DNA from: Glaucostegus cemiculus
Taxonomy: Eukaryota
Direction of reading: 5' to 3'
Assembly: GCA_976551045.1 (NCBI GenBank)
Contig: CDPCPM010000367.1
Span: 1,364,001 to 1,428,000 of the forward strand
Length of the DNA stretch: 64,000 bases
Shown: positions 6,061 through 63,970 of the stretch, piece after piece
Numbering within the stretch: the first letter of the stretch is position 1
Layout: every line of letters begins with the position of its first letter
Translations under genes and position numbers: made by a program
The notes under the pieces: model-generated
Seen by the model: the letters and a program-made list of their open reading frames with translations, nothing else
The model's database searches: none
What the model was told of the DNA's origin: nothing

Positions 6061-8560
6061 ATAGAACATAAAACATTACAGCACAGTACAGGCCCTTCGG
6101 CCCACAACGTTATGCCTACATTTTGTCCTATTCTAAGAGCTAATGCTTCCCTCCCACATAGCCATCTGTTTCTCTATAATTTATGTGGCTGTCTAAGAGT
6201 CTCTGAAATGCCCTAATGTATATGCCCCCACAACCTCTGCCAGCAGTGTGTTCCATGCACCCACCACTCTCTGTGTAAAAAAACTTACCCTTGGCATCCC
6301 CCTTATACCTTCCATCAAATCGCCTTAAAATTATGCCCCCTCATGTTAGCCATTGTTGCCCTTGGAAAAAGTCCCTGACTGTCCACTCGATCTATGCCTC
6401 TTATCATCTTGTACACCTCTATCAAGTCACCTCTCATCCTCCTTATCTCCAAAGAAAAGTCCTAGCTCACTCAGCCTATCCTCATAAGACATGCTCTCCA
6501 ATCCAGGCAACATCCTGGTAAATCTCCTCTGCACCATCTCCAAAGCTTCCACATCCTTCCTATAATGAGGCGACCAGAACTGAACACAGTACTCCAAGTG
6601 TGGTCTGACCAGAGTTCTATAGAGCTGCGACATTACCTCGTGGCTCTTGAACTCAATACCCTGACTTAATGAAGGCCAACACTCCATATGCCTTCTAAAC
6701 AACCCTATCGATCTGCGCAGCAACCTTGAGGAATCTATGGACGTGGACCCCAAGATCCCTCTGTTCCTCCACACTGCTAAGAGTCCTGCCATTAACTGTG
6801 TATTCTGCCTTCAAATTCAATGTCCTGAGGTGTATCATTACACACTGTTCCGGGTTGAACTCCATCTGCCACTTCTCAGCCCAGCTCTGCATTCTATCAA
6901 TATCGTGTTGCAATCACTGCAACCTTCCACACTATCCATAACACCACCAACCTTTGTATCATCAGCAAACTTACTAACACCCACCTTCCACATCCTCATC
7001 CAAGTCATTTTTAAAGATCATAAAGAGCGGGGTCCCAGAACAGATCCCTGCGGAACACCACTGGTCACTGACCTCCAAGGAGAATATGCTCATCTACCAC
7101 CACCCTCTGCCTTCTCTGGGCGAGCCAATTCTGAATCCACACAGCCAAGTTTCCCTGGATCCCATATCTCCTGACTTTCTTAATGAGCCTTTCATGACTA
7201 ACCTTATCAAATGCCTTACTAAAATCCATGTACACCACATCCACTGCTCTACCTTCAATGATGTACTTTGTCACATCCTCAAAGAATTCAATCAGGCTCA
7301 TAAGGCACAACCTGCCCCTTACAAAGCCATGCTGACTGTCCCTAATCAGCCTATGCTTCTCCAAATGTCCATAAATCCTGTCTCTAAGAATCTTCTCCAG
7401 TAATTTGCCCACCACTGAAGTAAGACTCACTGGTTTGTAATTTCCACGGTTATCCCTACTCCCTTTCTTAAACAAAGGTGTTCCTTGATCCTACTCACCA
7501 AGAACTTCTCATGCCCCCTTCTAGCTCTCTTAAGTCCATTCTTAAGCTCTCTCCTGGCTACCTCATAACTCTCCAGAGCCCTGTCTGATCCATGCTTTCT
7601 AAAGCTTCTTTCTTCTTCTTGACAAGATGTTCTACATCTCTTGTCAACCACGGTTCCTTCACTTTACCATCCTTACCCTGCCTCAATGGGGCAAACCTAT
7701 CCAGAACCCCATGCAACTACTCCCTAAACAACCTCCACATTTCCGCTATACGCTTCTCCAAGAACATCTGTTCCTAATTTAAGCTCCCAAGTTCCTGTCT
7801 AACAGCATCATAATTTCCCCTCCCCCAGTTAAATACTTTCTCATATTGTCTAATCCTATCCCTCTCCAAGGCAATGGTAAAGGTTAAGGAGCTATGGTCA
7901 CTATCTCCAAAATGCTCTCCCACTAACAGATCTGAATCCTGATCAGGCTCATTGCCAAGTACCAAGTCCAGAATGGCCTCTCCTCTAGCTGGTCTGTCCA
8001 CATACTGTGTCAGGAATCCTCCTGGATCCCTGACACAGTATGTGGACAGGCCAGAGGTGCCAATCAATATTGGGGAAGTTGAAATCACCGTGACAACAAC
8101 CCTGTTATTTTTGCACCTCTCTAAAATCTGCCTCCTGATCTGCTCCTCAGTGTCTCTGCTGATGTTGGGAGGTCTGTAGAATACTCCCAATAGAGTGATT
8201 GCTCCCTTCCTGTTTCTGACTTCCACCCACTCTTACTTAGTAGGTACTCCCTCTAGGGCATCCTCCCTTTCTGCAGCTGTGACACTGTCCCTGATCAGCA
8301 AAGCCACTCCCCCACCTCTTTTACCTCCATCCCTGTCCATTTTGGAACACCTAAGCCCCAGAGTATCCAGCAGCCATTCCTGCCATTGCGACAGCCAAGT
8401 CCCTGTAATGGCCACCAGGTCGTAGTTCCATGTACTTACCCATGTTCTGATTTCATCAGCCTTGTTCCTGATACTTCTTGCATTAAAGTAGTCACACTTC
8501 ATCCCATCCAACTGACTGCAATTTTGCCCTTTCCAATGCCTATCCTTCCTCACAGTCTTT
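6061..8560 (-). mobile_element. CR1 LINE, 5'-truncated and frameshifted (APE endonuclease, RT, 3' tail)
   Basis: ORF fragments [43 protein letters not shown] and LVRPHLEYCVQFWSP. The 3' tail reads agaacata..cagcacagtacaggcccttcggccc on +. Internal deletions relative to the intact copy. Confidence 0.93.
7994..8049. repeat. Perfect 21-bp inverted repeat inside CR1
   Basis: ctgtccacatactgtgtcagg (7994-8014) and cctgacacagtatgtggacag (8029-8049), 14-nt spacer. Confidence 0.95.
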
Positions 8561-34947: not shown

Positions 34948-35240
34948 TATAACAGTTAGCATAACACTACTACGGTGCCAGCAACCCAGGTACAGTCCCC
35001 CCCACTGTCTGTAAGGAGTCTGTACGTTCTCCCCATGTCTGCGTGGGTTTCCTCCAGGTGCTCCGGGTTCCTCCCACATTCCAAAGACATACGGGTTAGG
35101 AAGTTGTGGACATGCTATGTTGGTGTCAGAAGCATGGCAACACTTGCGGGCTGCCCCCAAAACACTCTACGCATAATATGCATTTCACTCTGTGTTTTGA
35201 TGTACATGTAACTAATAAAGATCTTATAAAGATCTTATAA
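34948..35240 (+). mobile_element. V-SINE
   Basis: V-core, then tail gatgtacatgtaactaataaagatcttataaagatcttata. Confidence 0.87.
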
Positions 35241-35289
35241 ATGATAAATTGCCCTTCCTCGAGCTTAAACTAATCAATGACTTTCTGTA

Positions 35290-35975
35290 GTGCTAACTTT
35301 TTATGTTTCACTTGTAGGCCCAGATCTCTTGTACTTCAACATTTATATTCTCACTTGCTTTAGTAATGATTTGTTCTTTTTTCTTCTGAAGTGGATAACT
35401 CACATCTTCCCACATCATACTCTAACTGCCAACTTTGTGCCCACCCTCTTAACCGAACCAGATCCTTATGCAAGCTACTTGTTTCCTCCTCATAACTTGC
35501 TCATTCACCTAACTTTTATACCATCATCAGATTTGTCTAAGAACACTCCATCCTGTTATCTCAATCATCAATATAGATAATAATAGTTAAGACCCCAGCT
35601 CTGATACTTGTGGACCCTACCACTTACTGATTGCAGGTCCGAAAATGACCTATTTATTCTGACTCTCAATTTCCTATTAGCCACTTCCTTATTCGTGCCA
35701 ATATATTACCCCAACCTTGTGCAGTAAATGCCTGGAGATCCAAATATACTACATCTATTCATTCCCCTTTATCCATCTTGTTTGTCATATCTTTAAAGAA
35801 CTCTAGCAGATTTATAGAACACTCTTTCCCTTTCATACAACCATGTTGATTAGCTTGATTGTTTTATGTGTTTCTAAATGGCCTGCTATTACATCTTTAA
35901 TGGATTCCAGCATTTTCCTGGCAACAGAAGTTATTACGACTTCCTGCTTTCTGTCTCCCTCCTTTCTTCAGTACT
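35290..35975 (-). mobile_element. Old CR1 RT fragment
   Basis: ANVMPVLKKGGRQKAG and decayed QHG/KGK/DLQAF-type motifs. Confidence 0.55.
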
Positions 35976-36427
35976 GGCATTACATTTGCAATAGCGGTGA
36001 ACCAAATGAAAGGTTCTGATGTAAAGGGATCGACCTGTCCTTTCTTTACAGATGCCTGAGTATTTCCAGCATTTTCAGTCCCTTGAAGGAAAACTAGGGG
36101 GAATATCTGACGTGATAAATTGATGTTTCCCCAGGCTGTGAAGTCTGTAAACAAGGGTCACAGTCTCAAAAATAAGGAGTCAATCCTTGCCAACTTTTGT
36201 CCCACCCATTCCCCTCACCTCTTTATACTGGACATCTGCCCTCTACTGTCTCAGTCCATTTTGTCGGATCTGGTTAAGTTTTGAATCCACAGGTTATTTC
36301 AGGAGTCCAAGAATGAATTGAAAACAACGTGGTGCTTCACAAAGTTTTACTGGAAAAGTTTAAAATGAAGAAACAGTCACAGAGTACGTGACACTAGGTT
36401 TATTACTAGGAGATGAGCTGAGACAAA

Positions 36428-36938
36428 GAACCATAGAGCCGTAGAACACTACAGCACTGAAAACAGGCCATTTGGCCCTTCTAGTCTTTGCCGAAACTTT
36501 ATTTTGCTAGTCCCATTGACCTGCACCCAGGCTATAACCCTCCAGACCTCTCCCATCCATGTATCTATCCAATTTATTCTTAAACTTAAGAGTGAGCCTG
36601 CATTTAGCACTTCAGATGGCAGCTCATTCCACACTCCCACCACTCTGAGTGAAGAAGTTCCCCCTAATGTTCCCCCTAAACCTTTTCCCTTTCACCCTAA
36701 GGCCATACCCTCTCGTACTTATCTCTCCTAATCTAAGTGGAAAGAACTTACTTGCATTTATTCTGTCTATACCCCTCATAATTTAGTAAACCTCTATCAA
36801 ATCTCCCCTCATTCTTCTATGCTCCAAGGAATAAAGTCCTAACCTGTTCAATCTTTCCCTGTAACTCAAGTATGAAGACCCGGCAGCATACTAGTAAATC
36901 TTCTCTGCACTCTTTCAATCTTACTGATATCCTTCCTA
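36428..36938 (-). mobile_element. CR1 3' fragment (subfamily distinct from the intact copy)
   Basis: VGVWNELPSEV translation; tail gaaccatagagccgtagaacactacagcac..aggccatttggccc. Confidence 0.85.
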
Positions 36939-37322
36939 AAGGATCTAAAATGAGCTAGGGCCAGTGGGGGGGAAGAGAGCAAGAGAAGCAAGAGAGAGAC
37001 AGGCAAGAGAGAGGTAGTATTTAACAAAAAAAATGACACCTTTTATACCTGAGGTAAGAGGTACTCCTTAGCTAATAATAGCCTAATCAGAAAACTTTTT
37101 AGATACCTGTGACAAAATTAATCAATGAGAAAATACATATTCACCTGATGGACAAACCATTATGCTAAAAAACAATTATACCTTGTACAGCCACTTGAGG
37201 TGTATTAAACGCTATACATGTTAAAAACAATGAACAATAGAACAATAGAACAATAGAACAATACAGCACAGAACAGGCCCTTCGGCCCATCAAGCTGTGC
37301 CATCCTACAAACATCTCCCAAA

Positions 37323-40300
37323 CTAACTCTTTCCACCCTCATATCCTACTATTCCACATTCTTCCATGTGCTTATCTAACAATCTCTTAAACCTGTCCAA
37401 CGTATCTACCTCCACTACCACCCCAGGCAGTGCATTCCATGCACCAACCACTCTCTGGGTGAAAAACTTCCCTCTGACGTCTCCCCTATACTTTTCACCT
37501 ATTATCTTAAAGGCATGCCCTCTCGTCTTGAGCATCTGCGCTCTGGGAAAGAGGCGCTGACTATTAACTCTATCTATTCCTCTCAATATCTTAAACACCT
37601 CTATCAAGTCCCCTCTCATCCTCCTCCTCTCTAATGAGTAGAGCCCTAACACCTTAAGCCTCTCTTTATATTCCATACCCTCCAATCCAGGCATCATCCT
37701 GGTAAAACGCCTCTGCACCCTCTCCAACGCCTCCACATCCTTCCTATAATGCGGCGACCAAAACTGAACACAATATTCCAAGTGCGGCCTAACTAGAGTT
37801 TTGTAAAGCAGCATCATCACCTCTCTGCTCTTGAACTCAATCCCTTTATTTATAAAAGCCAACATCCCATAAGCCTTCTTAACAGCCCTATCCACCTGCG
37901 AGGCAACTTTGAGCGAACTGTGGATATGAACCCCCAGATCCCTCTGCTCCTCCACACTGCCAAGAACCTTACCATTTACCTTATACTCTGTCCTGGAGTT
38001 TGTCCTCCCAAAGTGCACCACCTCACACTTCTCCGGATTAAACTCCATCTGCCACCTATCAGCCCATTTCTGCATCCTATCAATATCCCCCTGTAAGCTC
38101 CTACAGTCCTCCACACTATCTACCACACCACCGATCTTGGTGTCATCTGCAAACTTACCAACCCATCCCTCCACTCCTTCATCCAAATCATCTATGAATA
38201 TAACAAAGAGTAGAGGCCCCAGAACCGATCCCTGCGGGACTCCACTAGTCACAGCCCTCCAATCCGAGGGCACTCCCTCCACCATAACCCTCTGCCTTCT
38301 ACAGGAAAGCCAATTTCTTATCCACACAGCCAACCTCCCCTGGATACCTCGACCTCTGACCTTCTGAAGAAGCCTGCCATGAGGAACCTTATCGAACGCC
38401 TTACTAAAATCCATATACACTACATCCACCGCCCTGCCCTCATCAAGCTTCCTCGTCACCTCCTCAAAGAACTCTATCAGGCTCGTGAGGCAAGATCTTC
38501 CCTTCACAAAGCCATGCTGACTGTCCCTAATCAGTCCATGACTCTCCAAGTGCTCATAGATCCTGTCCCTCAAAATCCTTTCCAACAGCTTACCTACCAC
38601 AGACGTGAGGCTCACCGGTCTGTAATTTCCCGGACTATCTCTACTGCCCTTCTTAAACAAGGGAACAATATCCGCTACCCGCCAATCCTCCGGCACCATC
38701 CCCGTGGACAACGAGGACTCAAAGATCCTCACCAGCGGATCAACAATCTCCTCCCTCGCCTCCCGAAGCAGCCTGGGGAATATTCCATCGGGCCCCGGAG
38801 ACTTATCAGTCTTGATACTACTTAACAATTTCATCACCTCCTCCCTCTCTATAGCTACATACTCAAGAATATTACCCTTGTCAGCACTCACCGTCACATC
38901 ATCAAGGCCCCTCTCCTTGGTGAATACAGAGGAGAAGTATTCATTAAGTACCTCCCCTACCTCTGCCGCCTCCAGGCACATCCTCCCACCTTTGTCCTTA
39001 ATAGGCCCTACCTTTACCCTAGTCATCCTTCTGCCCTTCACATAAGAGAAAAAAGCCTTGGGATTTTCCTTAACCCTACGAGCCAACATCTTTTCATGTC
39101 CCCTTCTAGCTCTCCTCAGCTCTTTCTTAAGTTCCCTTCTCACTATACTATACTCCTCACGGGCCACATCAGAGCCTTGCCGCTTACACCTTACGTAAGC
39201 CTCCTTCTTCCTCCTAACCAGTCTTTCTACCTCTCTTGTCACCCACGGTTCCTTCACTATTCCATTCTTCCTCCGTCTTGCCGGAACATATCTGTCCCCA
39301 ACATCCTGTAAAACATCCCTGAACAACGTCCACATCTCTACAGTACACATCCCCTCAAAAAGGACTTCCCAATTTACACTCCCAAGCTCTTTCCTTATAG
39401 CCTCATAGTCTGCCCTACCCCAATTGAATATCTTCCTACGCTCCCTGCACTTATGCCTGTCCATGACAATTCTAAAGCTTATCGAGGAATGATCACTGTC
39501 TCCCAGAGGCTCACCCACTAGTAGATCTCTCACCTGTCCCGGTTCATTTCCTAAGACCAGATCCAACACAGCATTCCCTCTAGTCGGTTTGTCAACATAC
39601 TGCTCCAGAAATCCATCCTGGACACACTTAACAAACTCATTCCCATCCAAACCTCTGGCACTGAGCATGTCCCAGTCTATATTCGGGAAGTTGAAATCAC
39701 CCATTATTACAACCCTATTATCTTTGCTTCTGTCCAAGCACTGCCTGCCAATCTGCTCCTCTATATCCCTACTGCTACCTGGGGGCCTATAGTATACTCC
39801 CAGCAGCGTAACCACACTTTTCCTATTCCTCACTTCCACCCACACCGACTCGAAAGAGGATCCTTCCGCAAACTCAGCCCTTTCCGCAGCCGTAACATCA
39901 TCTCTGACCAATATCGCCACCCCTCCTCCTCTTCTCCCCCCCTCCCTATCCTTTTTAAAACACTGAAAACCAGGAATGTTCAATACCCACTCCTGCCCTG
40001 ACGACAGCCACGTCTCAGTTATGGCTACAATATCATAATCCCCCATACCTATCCAAGCCCTCAATTCATCACCCTTATTCCTAACACTTCTCGCATTAAA
40101 GTAAACACACTTTAACCCATCCAATTTAACCCTTTTATAGCCCTCATCCTGCCTCTCTCTCCCCAAAGCCTCATCACCTGCTCGATGCAACTCATCTCCA
40201 TCTTCAGTACACGTCGACGTGATCCTGCATACCTCCTCCTTTAAGCCATGTTGGTTTCCCTTGCCTTGCCTGTTTAGTTTATCCACCTTTTTACTATTAC

Positions 40301-40424
40301 TGCCTGTACACTGCTTCTCCTTCCTCAAAGCAACTCCATTTGTCAGATCTGCCTTTTCTGTAATCCCTACATCCTCTGACCAGCCCTCCTGGTTCCCAAC
40401 CCCCATCTCAACTAGTTTAAACAC
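37323..40424 (-). CDS. CR1 ORF2: APE endonuclease and reverse transcriptase (open from GTG at 40424, first ATG at 40406)
   Basis: YFNARS, ITETW, YYRPP, MGDFNFP, DSDH (APE); YRPVSLTS, DFSKAFD, GVPQGSVLGP, KFADD (RT); 1033 codons without a stop. Confidence 0.97.
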   Translation of the reverse strand: MFKLVEMGVGNQEGWSEDVGITEKADLTNGVALRKEKQCTGSNSKKVDKLNRQGKGNQHGLKEEVCRITSTCTEDGDELHRAGDEALGRERQDEGYKRVKLDGLKCVYFNARSVRNKGDELRAWIGMGDYDIVAITETWLSSGQEWVLNIPGFQCFKKDREGGRRGGGVAILVRDDVTAAERAEFAEGSSFESVWVEVRNRKSVVTLLGVYYRPPGSSRDIEEQIGRQCLDRSKDNRVVIMGDFNFPNIDWDMLSARGLDGNEFVKCVQDGFLEQYVDKPTRGNAVLDLVLGNEPGQVRDLLVGEPLGDSDHSSISFRIVMDRHKCRERRKIFNWGRADYEAIRKELGSVNWEVLFEGMCTVEMWTLFRDVLQDVGDRYVPARRRKNGIVKEPWVTREVERLVRRKKEAYVRCKRQGSDVAREEYSIVRRELKKELRRARRGHEKMLARRVKENPKAFFSYVKGRRMTRVKVGPIKDKGGRMCLEAAEVGEVLNEYFSSVFTKERGLDDVTVSADKGNILEYVAIEREEVMKLLSSIKTDKSPGPDGIFPRLLREAREEIVDPLVRIFESSLSTGMVPEDWRVADIVPLFKKGSRDSPGNYRPVSLTSVVGKLLERILRDRIYEHLESHGLIRDSQHGFVKGRSCLTSLIEFFEEVTRKLDEGRAVDVVYMDFSKAFDKVPHGRLLQKVRGRGIQGRLAVWIRNWLSCRRQRVMVEGVPSDWRAVTSGVPQGSVLGPLLFVIFIDDLDEGVEGWVGKFADDTKIGGVVDSVEDCRSLQGDIDRMQKWADRWQMEFNPEKCEVVHFGRTNSRTEYKVNGKVLGSVEEQRDLGVHIHSSLKVASQVDRAVKKAYGMLAFINKGIEFKSREVMMLLYKTLVRPHLEYCVQFWSPHYRKDVEALERVQRRFTRMMPGLEGMEYKERLKVLGLYSLERRRMRGDLIEVFKILRGIDRVNSQRLFPRAQMLKTRGHAFKIIGEKYRGDVRGKFFTQRVVGAWNALPGVVVEVDTLDRFKRLLDKHMEECGIVGYEGGKS

Positions 40425-41386
40425 TCATCAACCACCCAAGCATAACGTGTTGCCAGGATATTTGCCCCCCACCGGTTGGGGTGTAACCCGTCCTCTCTGT
40501 ACAGGTTCCACCTTCCCCAGAATAGATCCCAATTATCCAAAAATCTAAATCCCTCTGCCCTGCACCACTCTCTCAGCCACGTATTTAACTGCCTCCTCTC
40601 CCTGTTCCTAACTTCCCTATCACGTGGCACCGGGAGTAATCCAGAGATTACTACCCTTGAGGTCCTGGTCTTCAGCTTTCTGCCTAGCTCCCTGAACTCC
40701 CCTTGCAGGACCTCATCCCTCTTTCTACCTATGTCGTTGGTACCAACATGAACCACAACTACTGGCTGCTCTCCCTCCCGATTGAGAATCCGGGGAACCC
40801 GATCAGTAATATCCTGGACCCTGGCACCAGGGAGGCAACATACCATCCGGTATTCATGATCACTTCCACAGAATCTCCTATCTGTTTCCCTGACTATCGA
40901 GTCCCCTATCACCACTACATTACTCTTCACCTTCTTCCCCATCTGAGCAGTAGTACTGGTCATGGTGCCAGTGACCTGGGTACTTGTGCTTGGTCCCTGC
41001 AGGCTATCCCCCTCCACAGTTTCCAAAGTTGAAAACCTGTTACTGAGGGGAACAGCCCCCAGGGTGCCCTGCTCTACCCGCCTGTCTGCCTTCTTCTTCC
41101 TCTTCTCTCCCCTGACAGTCACCATTCTGTCTAATACCTGAGCTACAGAAGAGTCTGCTCTAAGGGGGGTGACCGTCTCCTGATGAACCGTATCAACATA
41201 GCTCTCTCCCTCCCGTATGCTGCGCAGTGTCTGCAGCTGCGACTCCAGCTCAACAACTCTGAGCCGAAGTTCCTCCAGCCACACACACTTGCTGCAGATG
41301 TAGTCAGTGTGGACCGCAGTACTGTCCACGACCTCCCACATCAAGCAGCTGCAGCATACAAGCCTGTCCTCCCCCTGACTGTCCAT
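40412..41386 (-). CDS. CR1 ORF1: zinc finger/coiled coil plus SGNH/GDSL esterase domain
   Basis: CCSC..CSKC, heptad LEELRLRVVELESQLQTL, VIGDSIV, VHVGTND and DGLHPN (Ser/Asp/His triad motifs intact); 324 aa. Confidence 0.95.
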   Translation of the reverse strand: MDSQGEDRLVCCSCLMWEVVDSTAVHTDYICSKCVWLEELRLRVVELESQLQTLRSIREGESYVDTVHQETVTPLRADSSVAQVLDRMVTVRGEKRKKKADRRVEQGTLGAVPLSNRFSTLETVEGDSLQGPSTSTQVTGTMTSTTAQMGKKVKSNVVVIGDSIVRETDRRFCGSDHEYRMVCCLPGARVQDITDRVPRILNREGEQPVVVVHVGTNDIGRKRDEVLQGEFRELGRKLKTRTSRVVISGLLPVPRDREVRNRERRQLNTWLREWCRAEGFRFLDNWDLFWGRWNLYREDGLHPNRWGANILATRYAWVVDECLN

Positions 41387-41810
41387 CTTTGACCTGGCTA
41401 AATCAGAACCACAAACTGTAATAGGCGACTAAGAAACCTTACCTCCACCTACTTACCAGATACTTACTTACTCTGCTTGCCCCTTCTCGCCGAAGCCCCT
41501 TGAGCCTAAGCCCAGGTCACTCTGCTCCCCCTCACTCAGCTGCCCGCTCCGACGCTGCCCGCTCTTTCGGCCGGCTGCCTTTTTAAGCTGCCCGCGCCGC
41601 GCCTGCGCAGACCAGCCCCCACTCAAGCACTTACAAACTTTTACAACCCTACTCAATTACCTGAAATAAACACACTAACCCTAGTTAATTCTACCCCTAA
41701 TGGAATCTAACCCTTACTCTTACGATCCAATAAAAAAAAAGATAGAAAGAAAAACACTTAACTGCCCTGAAGACCTCCGAAGCTTTCCGAAGTCCCCCGA
41801 GTCGCAAAAG
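41387..41810 (-). promoter_or_regulatory. CR1 5' UTR / putative internal promoter
   Basis: CpG-rich core at 41480-41620 with TGCGCAGGCGC (NRF1-like) and repeated gcgggcagc. Function is inferred. Confidence 0.55.
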
Positions 41811-53654: not shown

Positions 53655-54842
53655 ATAGAACACTACAGCACCATAAGGCCTTTCAGCCCAGAATGTTGTG
53701 CCGACATTCTATCCTGGTCTAAGATCTACCTAACCATTCCCTCCCACATAGCCCCCTATCTTCCTATCATGCATGTGTCTATCTAATAGTCTTTTAAATG
53801 TCCCTAATGTATCTGTCCGACAACCTCTGCAGGTTGTGCGTTCCACGCATCCTCCACTCTCTGTGTAAAAAACTTACCCCTGACATCCCCCTTATACCTT
53901 CCACCAATCATCTTAAAATTATGTCCCCTCATATTAGCCATTGTTGCCCTGGGAAAAAGTCTCTGACTATCCACTTGATCTTTGCTTCTTATCATCTTGT
54001 ACACCATTATCAAGTCACCTCTCATCCTCCTTATCTCCAAAGAGAAAAGCCTTGGCTCGCTCAACCTATCCTCATAAGACATACTCTATAATCCAGGTAA
54101 CATCCTGGTAAATCTTCTCTGCACCCTCTCTAAAGCTTCCACATCCTTCCTATAATGAGGCGACCAGAACTGAACACAATACTCCAAGTGTGGTCTGACC
54201 AGAGAGCTATAGGGCTGCAACATCACCTCGCAGCTCATGAACTCAATACCTCGACAAAGACAGCCAACATTCCATACTCCTTCTCAAGAACCCTATTGAT
54301 CTGCATGGCAACCTTGAGGGATCTATGGATGTGGACCCCAAGATCCCTCTGTTCCTTCACACTGCTAAGAATCCTGCCATTAACCTTGTATTCTGCTTTC
54401 AAATTCGATCTCCCAAAGTGTATCACTTCACACTTATTCCATCTGCCACTTCTCAGCCCAGCTCTGCATCCTATCAATATCCTGTTGTAATCTACAGCAA
54501 CCTTCTACACTATCCACAACACCATCAACCTTTGTATCATCAGCAAACCCACCCTTCCACATCCTCATCCAAGTCATTTATAAAAATCACAAAGAGCAGG
54601 GGTCCCAGAATAGATCCCTGCGGAACACCACTGGTCACGACCTCCAGATAGAGTACGCTCCATCTACCACCGCCCTCTACGGACGAGCCAATTCTGAATC
54701 CACTCAGCCAAGTTTCCCTGGATCCCATGCCTCCCAACGTTCTGAATAAGCCTTCCATGAGGAACCTTATCAAACGCCTTACTAAAATCCATGTACACCG
54801 CATCCACTGCACTACCTTTATCAAAGTGCTTTGTCACATCCA
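53655..54842 (-). mobile_element. CR1 LINE 3' 1.2 kb, same subfamily as 6061-8560
   Basis: [39 protein letters not shown] and FFTQRV. Long nucleotide identities with 6061-7280. Confidence 0.93.
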
Positions 54843-57499
54843 CAAAGAGAAATTAACAGGGTTACATGCTACTGTGTCTTTAGGTGTAACTTGCACACAA
54901 ATTAACTTGTGCATGTGTGCTGGAGAGCCCTAAAATTATATTTTGTACTTAATAACACAAACATTTATACCAATGATATGTGACTATTATATGTTCAATT
55001 TTATGCTCATTTGTACACAAAAGGATTTGTAAATACAGGTTTTGAGAGAAAATTTAAAATTTGGCTTTCTCAGACAAGTCAAAATTAAGAAGAAAAAAAT
55101 GGCAGGAGGTTAAGATACTAATAAACAAGGCTTTGATGTAGCTTTCTTAAAGTGCAAATTATATGTAATTCATTGTTTTTCTTTTTTTATATCACATCTA
55201 TTCAATTGGAAAGTCTTTGATCCTTTTCCTGCTGTGAGCAGCAATATAAAACCAAGAGGCAGACAGAAGCAGTTAGTATTTGTTTGAAAAGACAAGTTGT
55301 ACCAGTTGTAGGAAGCAAATCTGATAAAGCTCCTGTTCTATTACGTTCACTCATAGTGAAAGAAAACATCTTGCCTATTCATATCCATACTTGCCTCATT
55401 AACTATTTGATGGGCCCACATTTGGAAAGATTGAAGAACTGCATGTTAGAAGTAGATGAATCACTTGGATCTTGTGATTGTAATGACAACAAAACTGTCA
55501 GTGCTCATTGGTGCACTGTGCAACTGACACCAATTTCTGGAGAATGCTTATGCACAATCAATTCCAGAAATCCAGAAAATGCTTTCAGTGATTCCCTGTT
55601 CCTTGACAGAGGTTGCTAATTATACCCTTATTCCACATAGTCATCAGAAATTAGTTATTTAGCTAGTGATCTGGAAACTAGTTCTTGCAGAAAATCCATC
55701 CCTCCCCCCCCCACCGCTGCGAACATATTACCTTGTTGAATGAGGTATACCAGTTTGTCAAGCTATTCGGAGAAATTCCTGCTCAGCAAACCCTTTGCAT
55801 CATTTTCCCTCATCCCAACTCCCACACCCCTACCAACAATAATATGTGCATGCTTTGTCATTCCCTAAGATAACTATCCCCAAATTCTGTGTTTATAACA
55901 ATTTTAATTTTTAATACTTATGGTACTACAAATATAACTTAAACTCATGTGAAGCTTCCAGTTTTTTATATTGTGCTTTGTAAAATCTTTAAGATGTTGG
56001 TTAGACATAGTGCATTATACTTGGTTTGCTCTCTGTGCGAATATGTTAATGTGACAGTCCTGCTTGATGACTTTCCTGTTGCTGATGATGGAAATGCTTT
56101 TGTTTTGCTGCTTACCTCAAAATTTAGATCATAGTTTTTTCTGTGGTATAATATTTTTGCTCTAGCACCATGATACATAACTGTGCAAGAACGTAAGTGG
56201 CAGTGTGAAGCAACTCATGTGAGAGTGAATTCTTTAGGCACCTTATGAGAGTGACTGATGTTACTGAATCTAATAATGTATTTACAGAAGAATAGAACTT
56301 ATATTCAAAACACAGTTCATGTGTGTCTGAAATGAAAGCAGGCCATCATCCCTGAGCAATTCATCAACCAGGACTGTGAGACCTTGGAAATGTGTTAAAA
56401 AAAGGAACTTGCAGAAGACCCAGATCTCACCACCCAGCATGATGGAAATGGAGGATAGAAAAAAATTTGGCTGAATCAGATTGGTGTGAAATGCTATGAG
56501 CAATGTTTTTTAAAGGCTGTTGAAAATCCATCGTGTGCTCGTCTGTGTCATCATCACTAGTTTCTACTGGCAAATTGGCCAACATTAGTGAGTTATGTTA
56601 TTCTTGCAGTTACACAGTGCACTCCGTGAAACAATGAGGCTAGATGCCATGTGACACTTTCCTTTTGATATCCACTATTCTATACTCAATTAAATTGCTC
56701 TTTGACAATATTAATCTTTTCCTGATTTAAATGTTATCTCTTGTTTCCTGAATTTTAAATTAAGAATCTTACTGTCTACATCACATAATTGGTGCAAATA
56801 AGAAAATAATGAAATCCTAATCAATTCAACTTTTACTCTCTAAACTTTATTAGTCTGTGTTTTTGTCTCCAATTGATGGCTTCTTGATATAGGGATTGAT
56901 TTTTTTCTTAAGGGTAGCATTGAGTCACTTTGTTTCTGAGTGTGAAATAGACTTGGTGCCGGTCAAATTGTGCACCTTAATGAATTTAAGCTCTAGTAAC
57001 AAATTCATTGCCTTATTTTCATTTCTCTTCTCCCCAACATACCATTTATTTAAAATATTTCTCAAACATCTTTACTTTCTCTCTGCTCAAGAAATTTTGA
57101 TTTGCTTGCCATTAATAATTAGCTTATACTTCTGGCAAAGAATTACAGCTAAATGGTGGAATTGAGGATTTGAATAAAGAGTCAATCAGATTGTCAATAC
57201 ATCAAAAACCTAAGATTGGTATATATGCTTCTCCCTGCTGCACTCAGGAAAAGGATAGATGATTCACAGTTTGCCTCTGTAATCATCATTCTTTGTATTA
57301 CGATGTACTCAAAAGCAGAATTTGTTTGACTTTATCTCAATTTCTCAGGTTTTTTTAAGAGAAGGGGGTTGCAATGCATTCACATGCAGGAAAAACCATA
57401 CTTCACCAATCCACTAAGGGCCTTTAGTGACCCAGGATCCCAAAGAAATAGAACTTCTATCAAGATTTTGAGAGTCAGTTTATGATCCCCTATCCTGAG

Positions 57500-58866: not shown

Positions 58867-59780
58867 GAGCATGAGTAATGCAGTAGATGCCATAACCATG
58901 ACTTCAAAGGAACTGAATTTTGAAATTACCATATAGTGTGTTTAGTGCTACTGAGGAAGTCAATTTCTAGGTAAATGCGATATGGTATATGTAATATGCT
59001 ATATTGTAACTTAAGTAGAGCACTGTAACTGATTTTACTTTGAGCACCAATGCTTTCCTGTTATCTTCTTGACAAGTTTTATGGGTGAGCTGCATCACTT
59101 GCTGGAGCTAAATGGATTTTGTTTTGAGTTACTATTATTAATTGCATTAATATAAATAGAAATCTCTGCAAGTTTTGCTCTAGAATATATATATTTTTTC
59201 TTACTTTTTATTATAGACTTTAATTAATCTATCTACTTAATAGATTGGATAAGTAATTTATACTATTCATGGAATGGAAAACCCTTAAAGAAAATCCTTT
59301 CCTGAGCTGCAGATGAGTAAAATCAATTTTTTCTGCTTTTTATCTTTAAAGACACATACACATTTCCTGAAAGTGTGACCACTAAGCACTGTGCCCTGCA
59401 CACCTTTGTCACACATCCAGACAAATGGTGAACTTGATGTTCCTGCTGAGTGCCATGTTAGCTTAAAAATAACACTGCTGATTGTCCATGCATTATAGAA
59501 TTTGCCCAGTTGTTTCTTCATTGGCTTGTACACCACTCAAAGGCTTAATCAGGCCTGTTTCTTTAATGTGCAAACAAGCACCAAATTAACAGACCTCCCA
59601 TTGCATTGGAGTTCCTTAAACTGAGAGCAAATGCAGATCACTGGCAGCTATTTGGTAGGAACTGGAAGATCTGGAAAATCGCAAATGTCACTCTACTCTT
59701 TAAGGGGGGGAAGCAAAAGACAGGAAATTATAGGCCAGTTAGCCTGACTTCAGTGGTTGAAAAGATGTTAGAGTCCATTA

Positions 59781-60370
59781 TAGAACATAGAACAGTACAG
59801 CACAGTACAGGCCTTTCAGCTCACAATGTTGTGCCGACCTATATAAACCTTCTCCACATTCAGTTTAGTCCCCTCTCTCCTTCACCTCCCATAACCATCT
59901 ATGTTTCTTTCAACCATGTGCCTATCTAAGAGTCTCTTAAATGACACTGTCATATTGGCCCCTTCCACCACACCTGGCAGTACATTCCAGGCACCCACCA
60001 CTCTCTGTGTAAGAAACCTAACTGACATCTCCCTTGAACTGTCCTCCACACATCTTAAATGGATGACCTCTGATATTGGCCATTACTGCCCTGGGGAAAA
60101 TGTGCTGGCTGTCCATTCTGTCAGTGCCTCTCATAATCTTGTATAGCTCTTTTCCAAAGACGAACAGGTTAGGAAGTTATGGGCATGCTATGTTGGTGCC
60201 GGAAGCATGGCGACACTTGAAGGCTGCCCCCAAAAAAATCACTACGCAAAAGATGTACTTCACTGTCTGTTTCGATGTACATGTGACTAATAAAGATCTT
60301 ATCTTATCAAGTCACCTCTCATCCTCTGTCGCTCTAAAGAGAAAAGCTCAACCTCTCCTCATAAGACATC
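59781..60370 (-). mobile_element. CR1 3' fragment nested in the + strand CR1, itself interrupted by a SINE
   Basis: tagaacatagaacagtacagcacagtacaggcc tail. After the SINE the sequence resumes with tatcaagtcacctctcatcct. Confidence 0.82.
60150..60307 (+). mobile_element. V-SINE 3' half
   Basis: ttccaaagac..ggttaggaagttatgggcatgctatgttgg..gatgtacatgtgactaataaagatcttatcttatc. Confidence 0.85.
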
Positions 60371-62016
60371 TGATTACTAAGGATGAAGTTTCGAGGTACT
60401 TGGAAGCTCATGATAAAATAGGCCAAAGTCAGCATGGTTTCTTTAAGGGCAAATCTTGCCTGACAAGTCTATTGGAATTCTTTGAGGAAGTAACAGGCAG
60501 GATTGACAAAAGAGAGTCAGTGGATGTTGTTTACTTGGAATTTCAGAAGGCCTTTGTTAAGTGCCACACGTGAGGCTGCTAAACAAATTAGGAGCCTGTC
60601 ATATTACAGGAAAGGTACGAGCATGGATAGAAGATAGGCTGACTGGCAGAAGACAAAGAGCGGTGATTAGTGATTTTCTTCAGGGGTCGGTGTTGGGTCT
60701 GCTATTTTTCACATTATATGTTAATGATCTGGATGACAGAATTGATGGCTTTGTGGTCATGTTTGCAGATGATGCAAAGGTAAGTGGAGGGGCAGGTACT
60801 GTTGAGAAAGCATGGAGTCTGCAAGAGGACTTGGACAGGTTGGGAGAATGGGCAAAGAAGACGCAGATGAAATGCAGTGTAGGGAAGTGTATGGTCATGC
60901 ATTTTAGTAGAAGGAATAAAGGCATAGACTATTTTCTAAACAGGGAGCAAATTCAGCAATCAGAGGTGCAAAGGGACTATGGAGTCCCAGTGCAGGATTC
61001 CCTAAAGGTTAGCTTGCAGGTTGAGTCAGTAGTAAGGAAGGCAAATGCAATGTTAGCATTCATTTCGAGAGGACTAGAATATAAAAGCAAGGATGTAATG
61101 CTGGGGCTTTATAAGGTGTTTTTCAGACCACATTTGGAGGATTGAGAGCAGTTTTGGGCCCCATATCTCAGGAAGGATGTGCCGGCATTTAGAAAGGGTC
61201 CAGAGGAGGTTTACAAGAATGATCCCGGAAGTGAAAGGATTAACATATGAGGAGCATTTGATGGCTCTAGTCCTGTACTTGCTGGAGTTTGGAAGGATGA
61301 AGGGGGGCTCTCATTGAAACCTATTTAATATTGAAAGGCCTGGAAAAGTGGATGTGAAGAGGATGTTTCCAGTAGAGGGAGAGTCTAGGACCACAGGGCA
61401 CACCCTCAGAATAGAAAGACATCCCTTTAGAACAAAAAAGAGGAGGAATTTCTTTAGTGAAAGGGTGGTGGATCTATGGAATTCATTGCCACAGACAGCT
61501 GTGGAGGCCAAGTCATTGGGTGTATTTAAAGTGGAGCTTGATAGGTTCTTGATTAGTAAGGGCGTCAAAGGTTACAAGGTGAAGGCAGGAGAATGCGGTT
61601 GAGAGAGAAAAATAAATCAGCCATGATCGAATGGCAGAGCAGACTTGATGGACCAAATGGCCTAATTCTGCTCCTATGTCTTATGGTCTTATGGTCTTAG
61701 TAGCTTTTTTTTTAACTCTTTCAATTCTCTATACTTGCTGTTCTGTCATCTCTTTGTCAGATTATCTCCAAAATAGGGTCAGTCCAATGTTCTTGGCCTA
61801 TAATTTTGAACAGACCTTCTTCATTTAGGTCCTTACAACTAGCAAGCAGAAAGAAACCTTGATCCAATGAATCTGAGGTGGATGCGAATGTTATTGTATG
61901 CAAGGTCAGCACATATCACCTGCACACCATGTCACACAGTAGCCCACTAACTCTGTTGCATTGAATGAAAGTGGGGATTCCTTGCATTGTCTGATAAAGG
62001 CCAGCTGCTGGTTTGA

Positions 62017-62379: not shown

Positions 62380-63970
62380 TTCTAATAGCAAACAGAAAAA
62401 AAACTTGATGCTAGCTGGATATGAAAGGTGGAAGGAGGTCAGGGTCTAAATTGGCTTGATAAGTTACCACACCATATATTTGTCAGCAAGATTGAAGGCT
62501 ATGGAATATAAGAGGCAGGAACAAAATGGATTAAAAAATTAGTTAAGCAATAAGAAACAGATTACAAGTGAAAGGTTGTTGTTTGGACTAAAGGGAAGCG
62601 TAGGATGGAGGTCCCTAGGGGTCGGACCACAGCTTTCCTTAATATTTAGTAATGATTTGGATTTGAGGAAACAGAGCACAATTTCCAGAGTTACAGGTGA
62701 TACAATGGCTGGAGGCATGGTGACCTGTGAGGAGGACAATGACGGACTTCAAGGAGATCTTAGTAGGCTGTTGGAACAAGCAAATAGATGACAGGTAAAT
62801 GTTCAATATGTGAAGAGTCCCATTTTGGTGAGAAGAATGAGGAGGGACAATATGAATGAAAGAGCATATGTGAGAACAGATGAATCTAGGAGTATATGTG
62901 TGTAGTTCAGTGGCACAACAGGTTGAGGAAAAGCTTTAAAAAAGTTCATTCAAGATCTCGTGCTTCATATAAAGAAACAGAGAGTACAAGTGCAGTGAAA
63001 GTTTAACCAGAACTTATAGATAAACAAAGGACTGCAGATGCTGGAATCTATGATGCTGGAGGAACTCAGCGGGCCAGGCAGCATCTGTGGAGAAAAGCAG
63101 GCAGTCAACGTTTCAGGTTAGGACCCTTCTTCAGGACTAAAGATAGGAAAAGAGGAAACCCAGTATATAGGAGGGAAAAACAGAGCAGTGATAGGTGGAC
63201 AAAAGAGAGAAGGCGGGGTGGGCACAAGGTGGTGATAAATAGATGCAGGTAAGAGATAGTGATAGGCAGATGTGGGGGAGGTGGGGAGAACAGATCCACT
63301 GGGGGATTGGTCAAAGGTAAGGAGAGAAAGGAAAAAACAAAGAGGTAGAAAAAAGAAAGAGCTAAGAGATATAAGAGAACTTGTGGATTGTCGCTCCAGA
63401 TTCCTGCATTTGCAGTCTATGCTGTCTCCTCTGGAGTACTGTGTCCAGTTCTAGGCACACTTCACTGTGGGTGCAGAAGATGTACAAAATTATGGGACCT
63501 TAGTTACTTGGATAGACTGGAGAAGCTGGGCTTGGACTCATTTGGAACAGAGAAGGTTGTGAGGAATCTGATTGAGGGAATTTAAAATTGTGAAGGGTAT
63601 AGACAGATAGATGGAGAGAAACTGTTCCAATTGGCAAAGGACTAAAGAATTAAAGGACATAGAATGTAGGTGATTGGCCAAAAATCAGAATTTACTTGTG
63701 AAAAAACTGTTTTAACATAACAAGTAATTAGGGTTGGGAATGCATTGCCAGGGGTAGCAGTGGAGCCAGAGCTGACTGCAGTGCTTGGAAAAGGAACTGG
63801 AGAAATATCAGAAAGGTAAGAATGGTCAGGGCTGGGGAGCAGGTGAGGGAGTGGGGAGCAGGGGAGCAGGTGAGGGAGTGGGACCAGCTGGATTATTTTT
63901 AAATGGGGCTAGTACAGGCTTTATGGGCTGAATTCTCTCCTGCATGGTAACCATTCTGTGGTTCTGGCTA
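62380..63970 (+). mobile_element. Very old CR1 RT/3' fragment interrupted by a Penelope-like piece
   Basis: LQGDLSRLLE, LEYCVQF and SYLDRLEKLGL; CR1-type tail tgggctgaa..tcctg..ccattctgtggttct. Confidence 0.65.
63020..63428. mobile_element. Penelope-like element ends in inverted arrangement
   Basis: ggactgcagatgctggaatct at about 63029-63050 and its reverse complement agattcctgcatttgcagtc at about 63398-63418 flank a purine-rich segment. Confidence 0.55.

Follow-up and report, generated by a model that had tools for sequence, protein, structure and literature searches.

A deeply conserved U_UUA_AAC site at the ORF1-ORF2 junction of CR1 retrotransposons, best read as a signal for -1 ribosomal frameshifting

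The window analyzed here, a stretch of 64,000 nucleotides from the genome of Glaucostegus cemiculus, contains a full-length and intact copy of a CR1 LINE on its minus strand (37232-41804, ends approximate), in which both open reading frames are open. All features described below lie on this strand unless stated otherwise. The 5' end at 41804 is shared by 21 of the 48 other copies compared, and the remaining 27 stop short of it, reflecting the frequent 5' truncation of CR1 copies in this genome. The 5' UTR (41387-41804) is followed by ORF1, which runs from the ATG at 41386 to a TAG (40412-41386) and encodes 324 amino acids that end in DECLN; its C-terminal part is an SGNH/GDSL esterase (Pfam PF13472, aa 182-307, E 2.2e-17), and its best named homologues come from rays and sharks. 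The ORF2 frame is open over 1033 codons (37323-40424) and encodes an APE-type endonuclease (PF03372, aa 109-312, E 6.7e-21) and a reverse transcriptase (RT; PF00078, aa 592-823, E 1.7e-33). The 3' UTR (37232-37322) ends in ATTGTTCT-type short tandem repeats, without poly(A). Two details of the 5' UTR were also recorded. A 226-nt unit (41579-41804) occurs in tandem, with up to four extra repeats, in the copies L304, L318, and L319, and such units resemble the monomer promoters of rodent L1. Four closely spaced GTAAG donor-like sites (41471-41442) lie just upstream of ORF1.

The combination of an esterase ORF1, an ORF2 with endonuclease and RT, and a tandem-repeat 3' end is that of the canonical vertebrate CR1, and the junction of the two ORFs matches that of consensus entries labelled CR1 in the available part of the supplement of PMC13343379. 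In an RT tree, which holds no named CR1 reference, the copies of this genome formed one supported group apart from the metagenome and teleost rows. A genome search with 201 nt of the junction returned 1160 candidates, and the 40 that were scored were 100% identical; these identical copies show that the family is young and are not independent evidence. The family is a mosaic: from about -670 to +230 around the junction (about 41090-40190) it is 82-93% like the copy L350, and the start of ORF1 and ORF2 are 84-94% like L358, as judged with the RT tree also compared. Older, broken LINE ORF2 fragments without ORF1 lie elsewhere in the window on both strands (6202-8547, 35165-36940, 53819-54849, 59672-61578, and 62455-63765). 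Within the variable middle of ORF1, a peptide motif, [VI]PLxN[RK][YF] (about 41050-41030, some 209 residues from the ORF1 end), is conserved, and it occurs twice in the L364/L365 family. CR1 ORF1 proteins are misnamed in databases: among P0007, P0001, and P0106, one is filed under Pseudomonas aeruginosa, probably owing to contamination, and others under ribosomal protein S24 or hydroxyacid oxidase isoforms, names that are probably gene-model artefacts.

The two reading frames meet in a very short space. The slippery heptamer U_UUA_AAC, the predicted -1 shift site, lies at 40415-40421 as an X_XXY_YYZ sequence in the phase of ORF1, and the ORF1 stop follows it directly (40412-40414; a TAG in this copy, and TAA or TGA in relatives). 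A TGA two codons upstream of the heptamer (40425-40427) closes the -1 frame, which is open from 40424, so that the overlap of the 0 and -1 frames measures 13 nt. An ATG in the ORF2 frame (40404-40406), in the context GAGATGG, lies 5 nt after the stop, and a GGGGG run occupies positions +11 to +15 after the heptamer (40400-40404). The first-pass annotation had described this arrangement, and its coordinates, the ORF1-phase heptamer, the upstream TGA, the 13-nt overlap, and the ATG at 40406 were all exact when the sequence was rechecked. Six heptamers of the form XXXYYYN are found in the 4391-nt stretch scanned, and one heptamer alone is weak evidence; the case that this one goes beyond chance rests on its being fixed at synonymous positions in all 11 families compared.

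These families were obtained by searching the genome with seven diverged ORF1 homologues and adding one metagenome locus, L031. Anchoring was based on the DGLH motif of the esterase, without use of the heptamer; 232 of 241 loci could be anchored, and 178 of them were distinct. Clustering at 80% identity gave 14 clusters, of which three singletons (L028, L200, and L296) were treated as altered copies of other families, being excluded from the count of wobble bases and merged into families for the counts of phase and Met codons. The 11 remaining families are 55-80% identical to each other; 10 come from one genome, and two rest on a single copy each. The conservation filter required a stop 26 codons after the anchor, which was present in 148 copies and missing in 30 of the 178. 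The heptamer is exact in 131 of the 148 copies and altered in 17, and both the altered heptamers and the missing stops are read as decay after insertion. In all 11 families, the majority state at the end of ORF1 is xxT TTA AAC TAR, while the residue that precedes the leucine varies by family (Cys, His, Ala, Gly, or Ser).

The three wobble bases of the junction are fixed in all 11 families. For comparison, the rest of the region (87 codons, less the last four and the three Trp codons) has an unchanging third base at 3 of 80 codons (2 of the 15 whose amino acid is invariant and 1 of the 65 variable ones), and the product of these class rates puts the chance of three fixed wobble bases at about 3e-4. 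In this region, TTA accounts for 14 of 100 Leu codons and AAC for 20 of 50 Asn codons. It is the RNA letters that are constrained, and not Leu-Asn. Two further lines of evidence were discarded. A protein-only test of the wobble T, in which the residue before LN lacked an NNT codon in 1 of 56 homologues, was unspecific, as positions -6 and -7 gave 2 and 1 of 56. The invariance of L161 and N162 in alignment A1 was circular, as A1 was built from LN-ending proteins.

The decamer could also have been kept for another reason, namely as a splice signal, through polymerase slippage, as an RNA-binding site, or for its C-terminal Leu-Asn, with ORF2 made from a spliced or edited RNA. The donor-like GTAAG sites of the 5' UTR, an AG that precedes the G-run in 8 of the 11 families, and the presence of the decamer in two shark 5' UTRs in the available part of the PMC13343379 supplement are what such an explanation can draw on. 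A need for Leu-Asn in the protein is unable to fix synonymous bases; three families, that of the window among them, do not have the AG; a pyrimidine tract is lacking; and stretches of three T and three A are presumably short for polymerase slippage. Taken together, we regard explanations of this kind as very unlikely.

The junction site is not confined to this genome. LN ends 56 of 105 ORF1 homologues, including named ones from rays, sharks, coelacanth, turtles, a frog, and a mormyrid, and it ends 48 of the 65 that have a tail of 22-28 residues after DGLH. Homologues with 24-residue tails from catfish, characins, and bichirs lack this ending and appear to be of the L2 type. At the nucleotide level, published consensus sequences from sharks to crocodilians bear the same junction site in the available part of the PMC13343379 supplement. 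Matches to TTTAAACTAR there lay at the junction in 17 of 20 cases, as judged by eye in the first 400 letters of each consensus; this search was conditional on the motif, so misses cannot be counted. The junction matches belong to the entries AllMis, CroPor, AmiCal, AquCat, CalMil, LatCha, HypSab, PriPec, ScyCan, SquAca, and AldAff, and PogVit_CR1-2 has the heptamer with a TGA stop; the labels seem to stand for alligator, crocodile, bowfin, bullfrog, chimaera, coelacanth, rays, sharks, and a lizard. The three other matches are the two shark 5' UTRs (SquAca_CR1-3 and SquAca_CR1-18) and an L2 element. A search of the same part of the supplement with codons for DGLH gave six CR1 rows, all with the site, although its terms had been chosen after those rows were known. 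In the accessible portion of the PMC4316615 supplement, the TTTAAACTAR search gave two matches, which by eye lay near the 3' end of ORF2 and not at the junction. Other genome contigs (25 loci) and viral contigs (5 loci) yielded distant esterases only.

Downstream of the heptamer, it is the -1 frame that continues into ORF2. Of the 148 copies, 110 have an endonuclease motif that could be located (38 do not), and in 97 of these it lies in the -1 frame counted from the heptamer. The distance from the heptamer to the catalytic Glu takes 14 different lengths among these 97 copies, ranging from 62 to 143 codons, and the stretch from the ORF1 stop onward (40116-40414 in the window) differs in length between families by whole codons. 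The -1 frame is open from the heptamer to the catalytic Glu in 86 of the 97, and stops occur in the other two frames (0 and +1) in 85 and 86 of these 86 open copies. In a comparison with a sister subfamily over 40116-40414, pN/pS came to 0.53 for the -1 frame, and to 0.74 and 1.64 for the two remaining frames; these values are based on small counts. Upstream of the heptamer, a stop interrupts the -1 frame after 1-6 codons in the majority of copies for most families, and in the classes listed this short stretch contains no Met. The -1 phase also survives the exchange of L350-type and L358-type segments in the window's family.

A start codon for ORF2 is not part of this pattern. Among the 86 open copies, 20 lack a Met all the way to the catalytic Glu; in 16 the first Met falls within the first endonuclease strand or at most 7 codons from it; and 50 have Met codons at nine different positions ahead of the endonuclease. 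The Met at codon 5, which corresponds to the ATG at 40406, accounts for 31 copies, all from the window's subfamily, and the 19 others are spread over eight other positions. The conserved AUG at or near the ORF1 stop that marks SART1-type coupling was not found in the 11 families compared. The first-pass annotation had set as its test that in related CR1s the heptamer and the -1 phase would be conserved at synonymous positions and the downstream ATG would not, and this is what is seen across divergent CR1 families.

In the competing model, a separate ORF2 protein of 1027 aa would start at the ATG at 40406, reached by reinitiation or leaky access. This ATG has a good context, is in frame 5 nt after the stop, and is present in the 40 identical copies scored, but it is restricted to the window's subfamily. 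In the sister subfamily its place is taken by GAG, and 17 copies of that subfamily lack any Met up to the catalytic Glu, while the Mets of other families lie at unrelated positions. As the main route, it is therefore highly improbable; it may be a secondary route in the window's subfamily but cannot be the mechanism of the family. Reinitiation could nevertheless contribute, given the good-context ATG in the youngest and very abundant subfamily and the Met ahead of the endonuclease in 50 of the 86 copies.

The missing AUG is no proof of frameshifting, because ORF2 of mammalian L1 is believed to be made independently of its AUG (PMC5009743, accessible part). An L1-like, unconventional termination-reinitiation was also considered, in which ribosomes that have terminated on ORF1, or others recruited by them, would start again in the -1 frame at a non-AUG codon near the junction, with the decamer and the GGGGG run as the reinitiation signal. 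ORF2 of both L1 and SART1 depends on ORF1 translation and is initiated unconventionally according to the available text of PMC2881922 and PMC5009743, and reinitiation of this kind would account for three observations: the stop is conserved, the linker is open, and a structured stimulator is lacking. It gives no reason, however, for an exactly phased X_XXY_YYZ sequence, including a wobble T two codons before the stop, and it leaves unexplained the in-frame TGA-C junction of related elements described below. We consider this explanation unlikely.

Several features of a -1 shift site are found together at the junction, with a heptamer in phase within a 0/-1 overlap and a downstream frame that is open and has no conserved start of its own. 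We take the junction to be a real and deeply conserved recoding signal, for which a site of -1 frameshifting is the best reading; that ORF2 is made there by a programmed -1 shift, as part of a fusion with ORF1 of low abundance, is in our judgement quite probable. On this model, termination at the codon after UUA AAC would be the usual outcome and would release an ORF1 product of 324 aa. In a minority of passages the ribosome would move back by one base (UUA/AAC to UUU/AAA), take CUA as its next codon, and go on translating across some 100 linker residues until it reaches the endonuclease and the RT. The product of this tandem slip would be a Gag-Pol-like fusion present in low amount, and the length of about 1354 aa predicted in the first-pass annotation was recomputed as 324 + 1030 = 1354 aa. 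Synonymous-site conservation, frame continuity, and the lack of a conserved AUG thus support its proposal of a -1 fusion of ORF1 to ORF2; we infer the slip, its efficiency, and the fusion protein from the sequence. Longer fused proteins were also sought in the databases and gave four matches, P0106 among them; P0106, P0035, and P0067 read xFKL at the junction, which fits the -1 frame, but these are single altered copies.

U_UUA_AAC is listed with the heptamers at which mammalian ribosomes shift most readily, and -1 frameshifting at it is well known in viruses. Most -1 sites have a hairpin or pseudoknot downstream, usually 5-9 nt past the shift site, and a minority have the element at 11-15 nt, including a linear protein-bound motif in arteriviruses; natural G-quadruplex stimulators were unreported as of 2016 (PMC5009743, as far as its accessible text goes). 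No conserved RNA structure was found at 5-9 nt downstream of the CR1 site in folding that excluded pseudoknots. Structure beyond that of shuffled sequences was not detected (z 0.03 for 45 nt, -1.69 for 75 nt, and -0.56 for 115 nt), a fourth folding window giving z -1.16. A common local fold was not found in the 11 families, whose folds differ, a G-quadruplex being chosen in one of them, and the element contains no canonical three-tier G-quadruplex motif. The G-rich stretch pointed out in the first-pass annotation is present, as the GGGGG run at 40404-40400; the stimulators it suggested, small stems (GGTT/AACC, ACCAG/CTGGT) or a G-quadruplex, did no better than shuffles and are not common to the families.

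What is conserved is the run itself. GGGGG at +11 to +15 is invariant in representative copies of all 11 families, while positions +3 to +10 vary, and a weaker conserved GGGA follows at +18 to +21. In most rows of the available PMC13343379 supplement, the heptamer and the G-run are 10 nt apart, and in some 6-7 nt. The strand is G-rich, with 12 runs of five or more G in the element, and part of the conserved run is a Gly codon; it may have been kept as a conserved peptide instead. Because the run is fixed at +11 without a common fold, at a spacing like that of the linear arterivirus case, a linear stimulator might be considered: the run, possibly with the adjacent stop, would act as linear RNA, bound by a protein or contacting the ribosome, and not as a local pseudoknot. 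This is the most speculative part of our reading, and is offered with low confidence.

Long-range pairing of the G-rich motif was scanned over 21 long copies. An upstream partner some 620-650 nt away, in the V-P-L-x-N-R-F/Y codons, ranked among the top four in most copies, but it is the Pro codon of a conserved peptide, and it is missing in L031 and in the only L142-family copy in which the motif could be located, both of which keep the G-run. No convincing compensatory changes were found for this partner, and long-range pairing is unsupported. Pairing with the 3' end of the element was inconsistent across families.

More distant esterase LINEs served as an outgroup, consisting of 79 metagenome loci (L032-L110) whose identity to the esterase is about 24-40%. 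An ORF1 stop could be identified in 76, of which 53 have TGA followed by C (27 TGA CTA and 20 TGA CCA). Where an endonuclease lies downstream (n = 55), it is in the ORF1 frame in 41 loci (34 open, 12 clusters at 80%), in +1 in 10, and in -1 in four; these last four, which mostly retain TGA-C, are probably decayed. The in-frame TGA CTA/CCA loci include L034, L035, L039, L041, L042, L044, L046, L047, L057, L079, L082, and L089, among others, and in L052 the junction is TAG GAT in frame. Fifteen loci had enough RT for a tree, in which they grouped together and separately from the CR1 copies of this genome, on long branches and with no named reference. UGA CU is a known readthrough context (PMC4207609, accessible part), and the outgroup junction points to a fusion product made by a second recoding route. 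Some outgroup loci have an ATG two codons past the stop, so reinitiation is possible there too. Given a second recoding route to the same fusion, the fusion becomes the more economical reading for CR1. It might further be proposed, tentatively and with the balance slightly against it, that esterase-type LINEs as a group make their polymerase as a Gag-Pol-like fusion by recoding, CR1 by a -1 shift driven by a linear G5 stimulator of a new kind, kept from sharks to crocodilians, and the distant lineage by UGA-C readthrough, which would mirror retroviruses.

The CR1 junction resembles several known systems in part. The shift site between pro and pol of BLV is U_UUA_AAC_UAG. A primer for BLV pol contains the same decamer, which the available text of PMC6712836 does not call a shift site. 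The U_UUA_AAC sites of retroviruses and coronaviruses share the heptamer, its phase, and the low-level fusion of a structural ORF to a polymerase (PMC5009743, accessible part); CR1 differs from them in being a non-LTR element, in having no conserved pseudoknot or hairpin at 5-9 nt, and in encoding no protease that would cut the fusion. The arterivirus nsp2TF site, according to the same text, is an analogy only: it too has a short, low-complexity linear motif 11 nt past the shift site in place of a structure, but that motif is C-rich, is bound by PCBP and nsp1beta, and directs a shift that is mainly -2, whereas the CR1 motif is G-rich and has no known binding protein. Among non-LTR elements, Dictyostelium TRE5-A and TRE3-A are also of the APE type and are stated to need a -1 frameshift for ORF2 (PMC5911963, accessible part), but belong to a different lineage with an unrelated ORF1 and target tRNA genes. 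Recoding has also been suggested for Paramecium LINEs (PMC5405496, accessible part). Human L1 and silkworm SART1 likewise have a bicistronic RNA and an ORF2 dependent on ORF1 translation, but the model for them is unconventional initiation or reinitiation giving separate proteins, with UAAUG in SART1 (PMC2881922, accessible part), whereas CR1 has no conserved stop-start overlap.

The words frameshift, slippery, overlap, and reinitiation do not occur in the available main text of PMC13343379, nor does frameshift in the available text of its supplement or in PMC3905857; the translation of ORF2 is not a subject of the PMC13343379 survey. No earlier description of a frameshift site in CR1 was found in the open literature covered, and one may exist elsewhere, for instance in subscription journals, Repbase reports, bioRxiv supplements, or the original chicken and turtle CR1 papers.

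In most vertebrates, elements of the CR1 group dominate among the retrotransposons (PMC13343379, accessible part). If CR1 makes its fusion by frameshifting, the N-terminus of ORF2 is mis-annotated, the ratio of ORF1 to ORF2 would be set as in retroviruses, and the esterase would be physically tied to the RT. A slippery site with a fixed G5 run and without a conserved structure would represent a new kind of natural stimulator.
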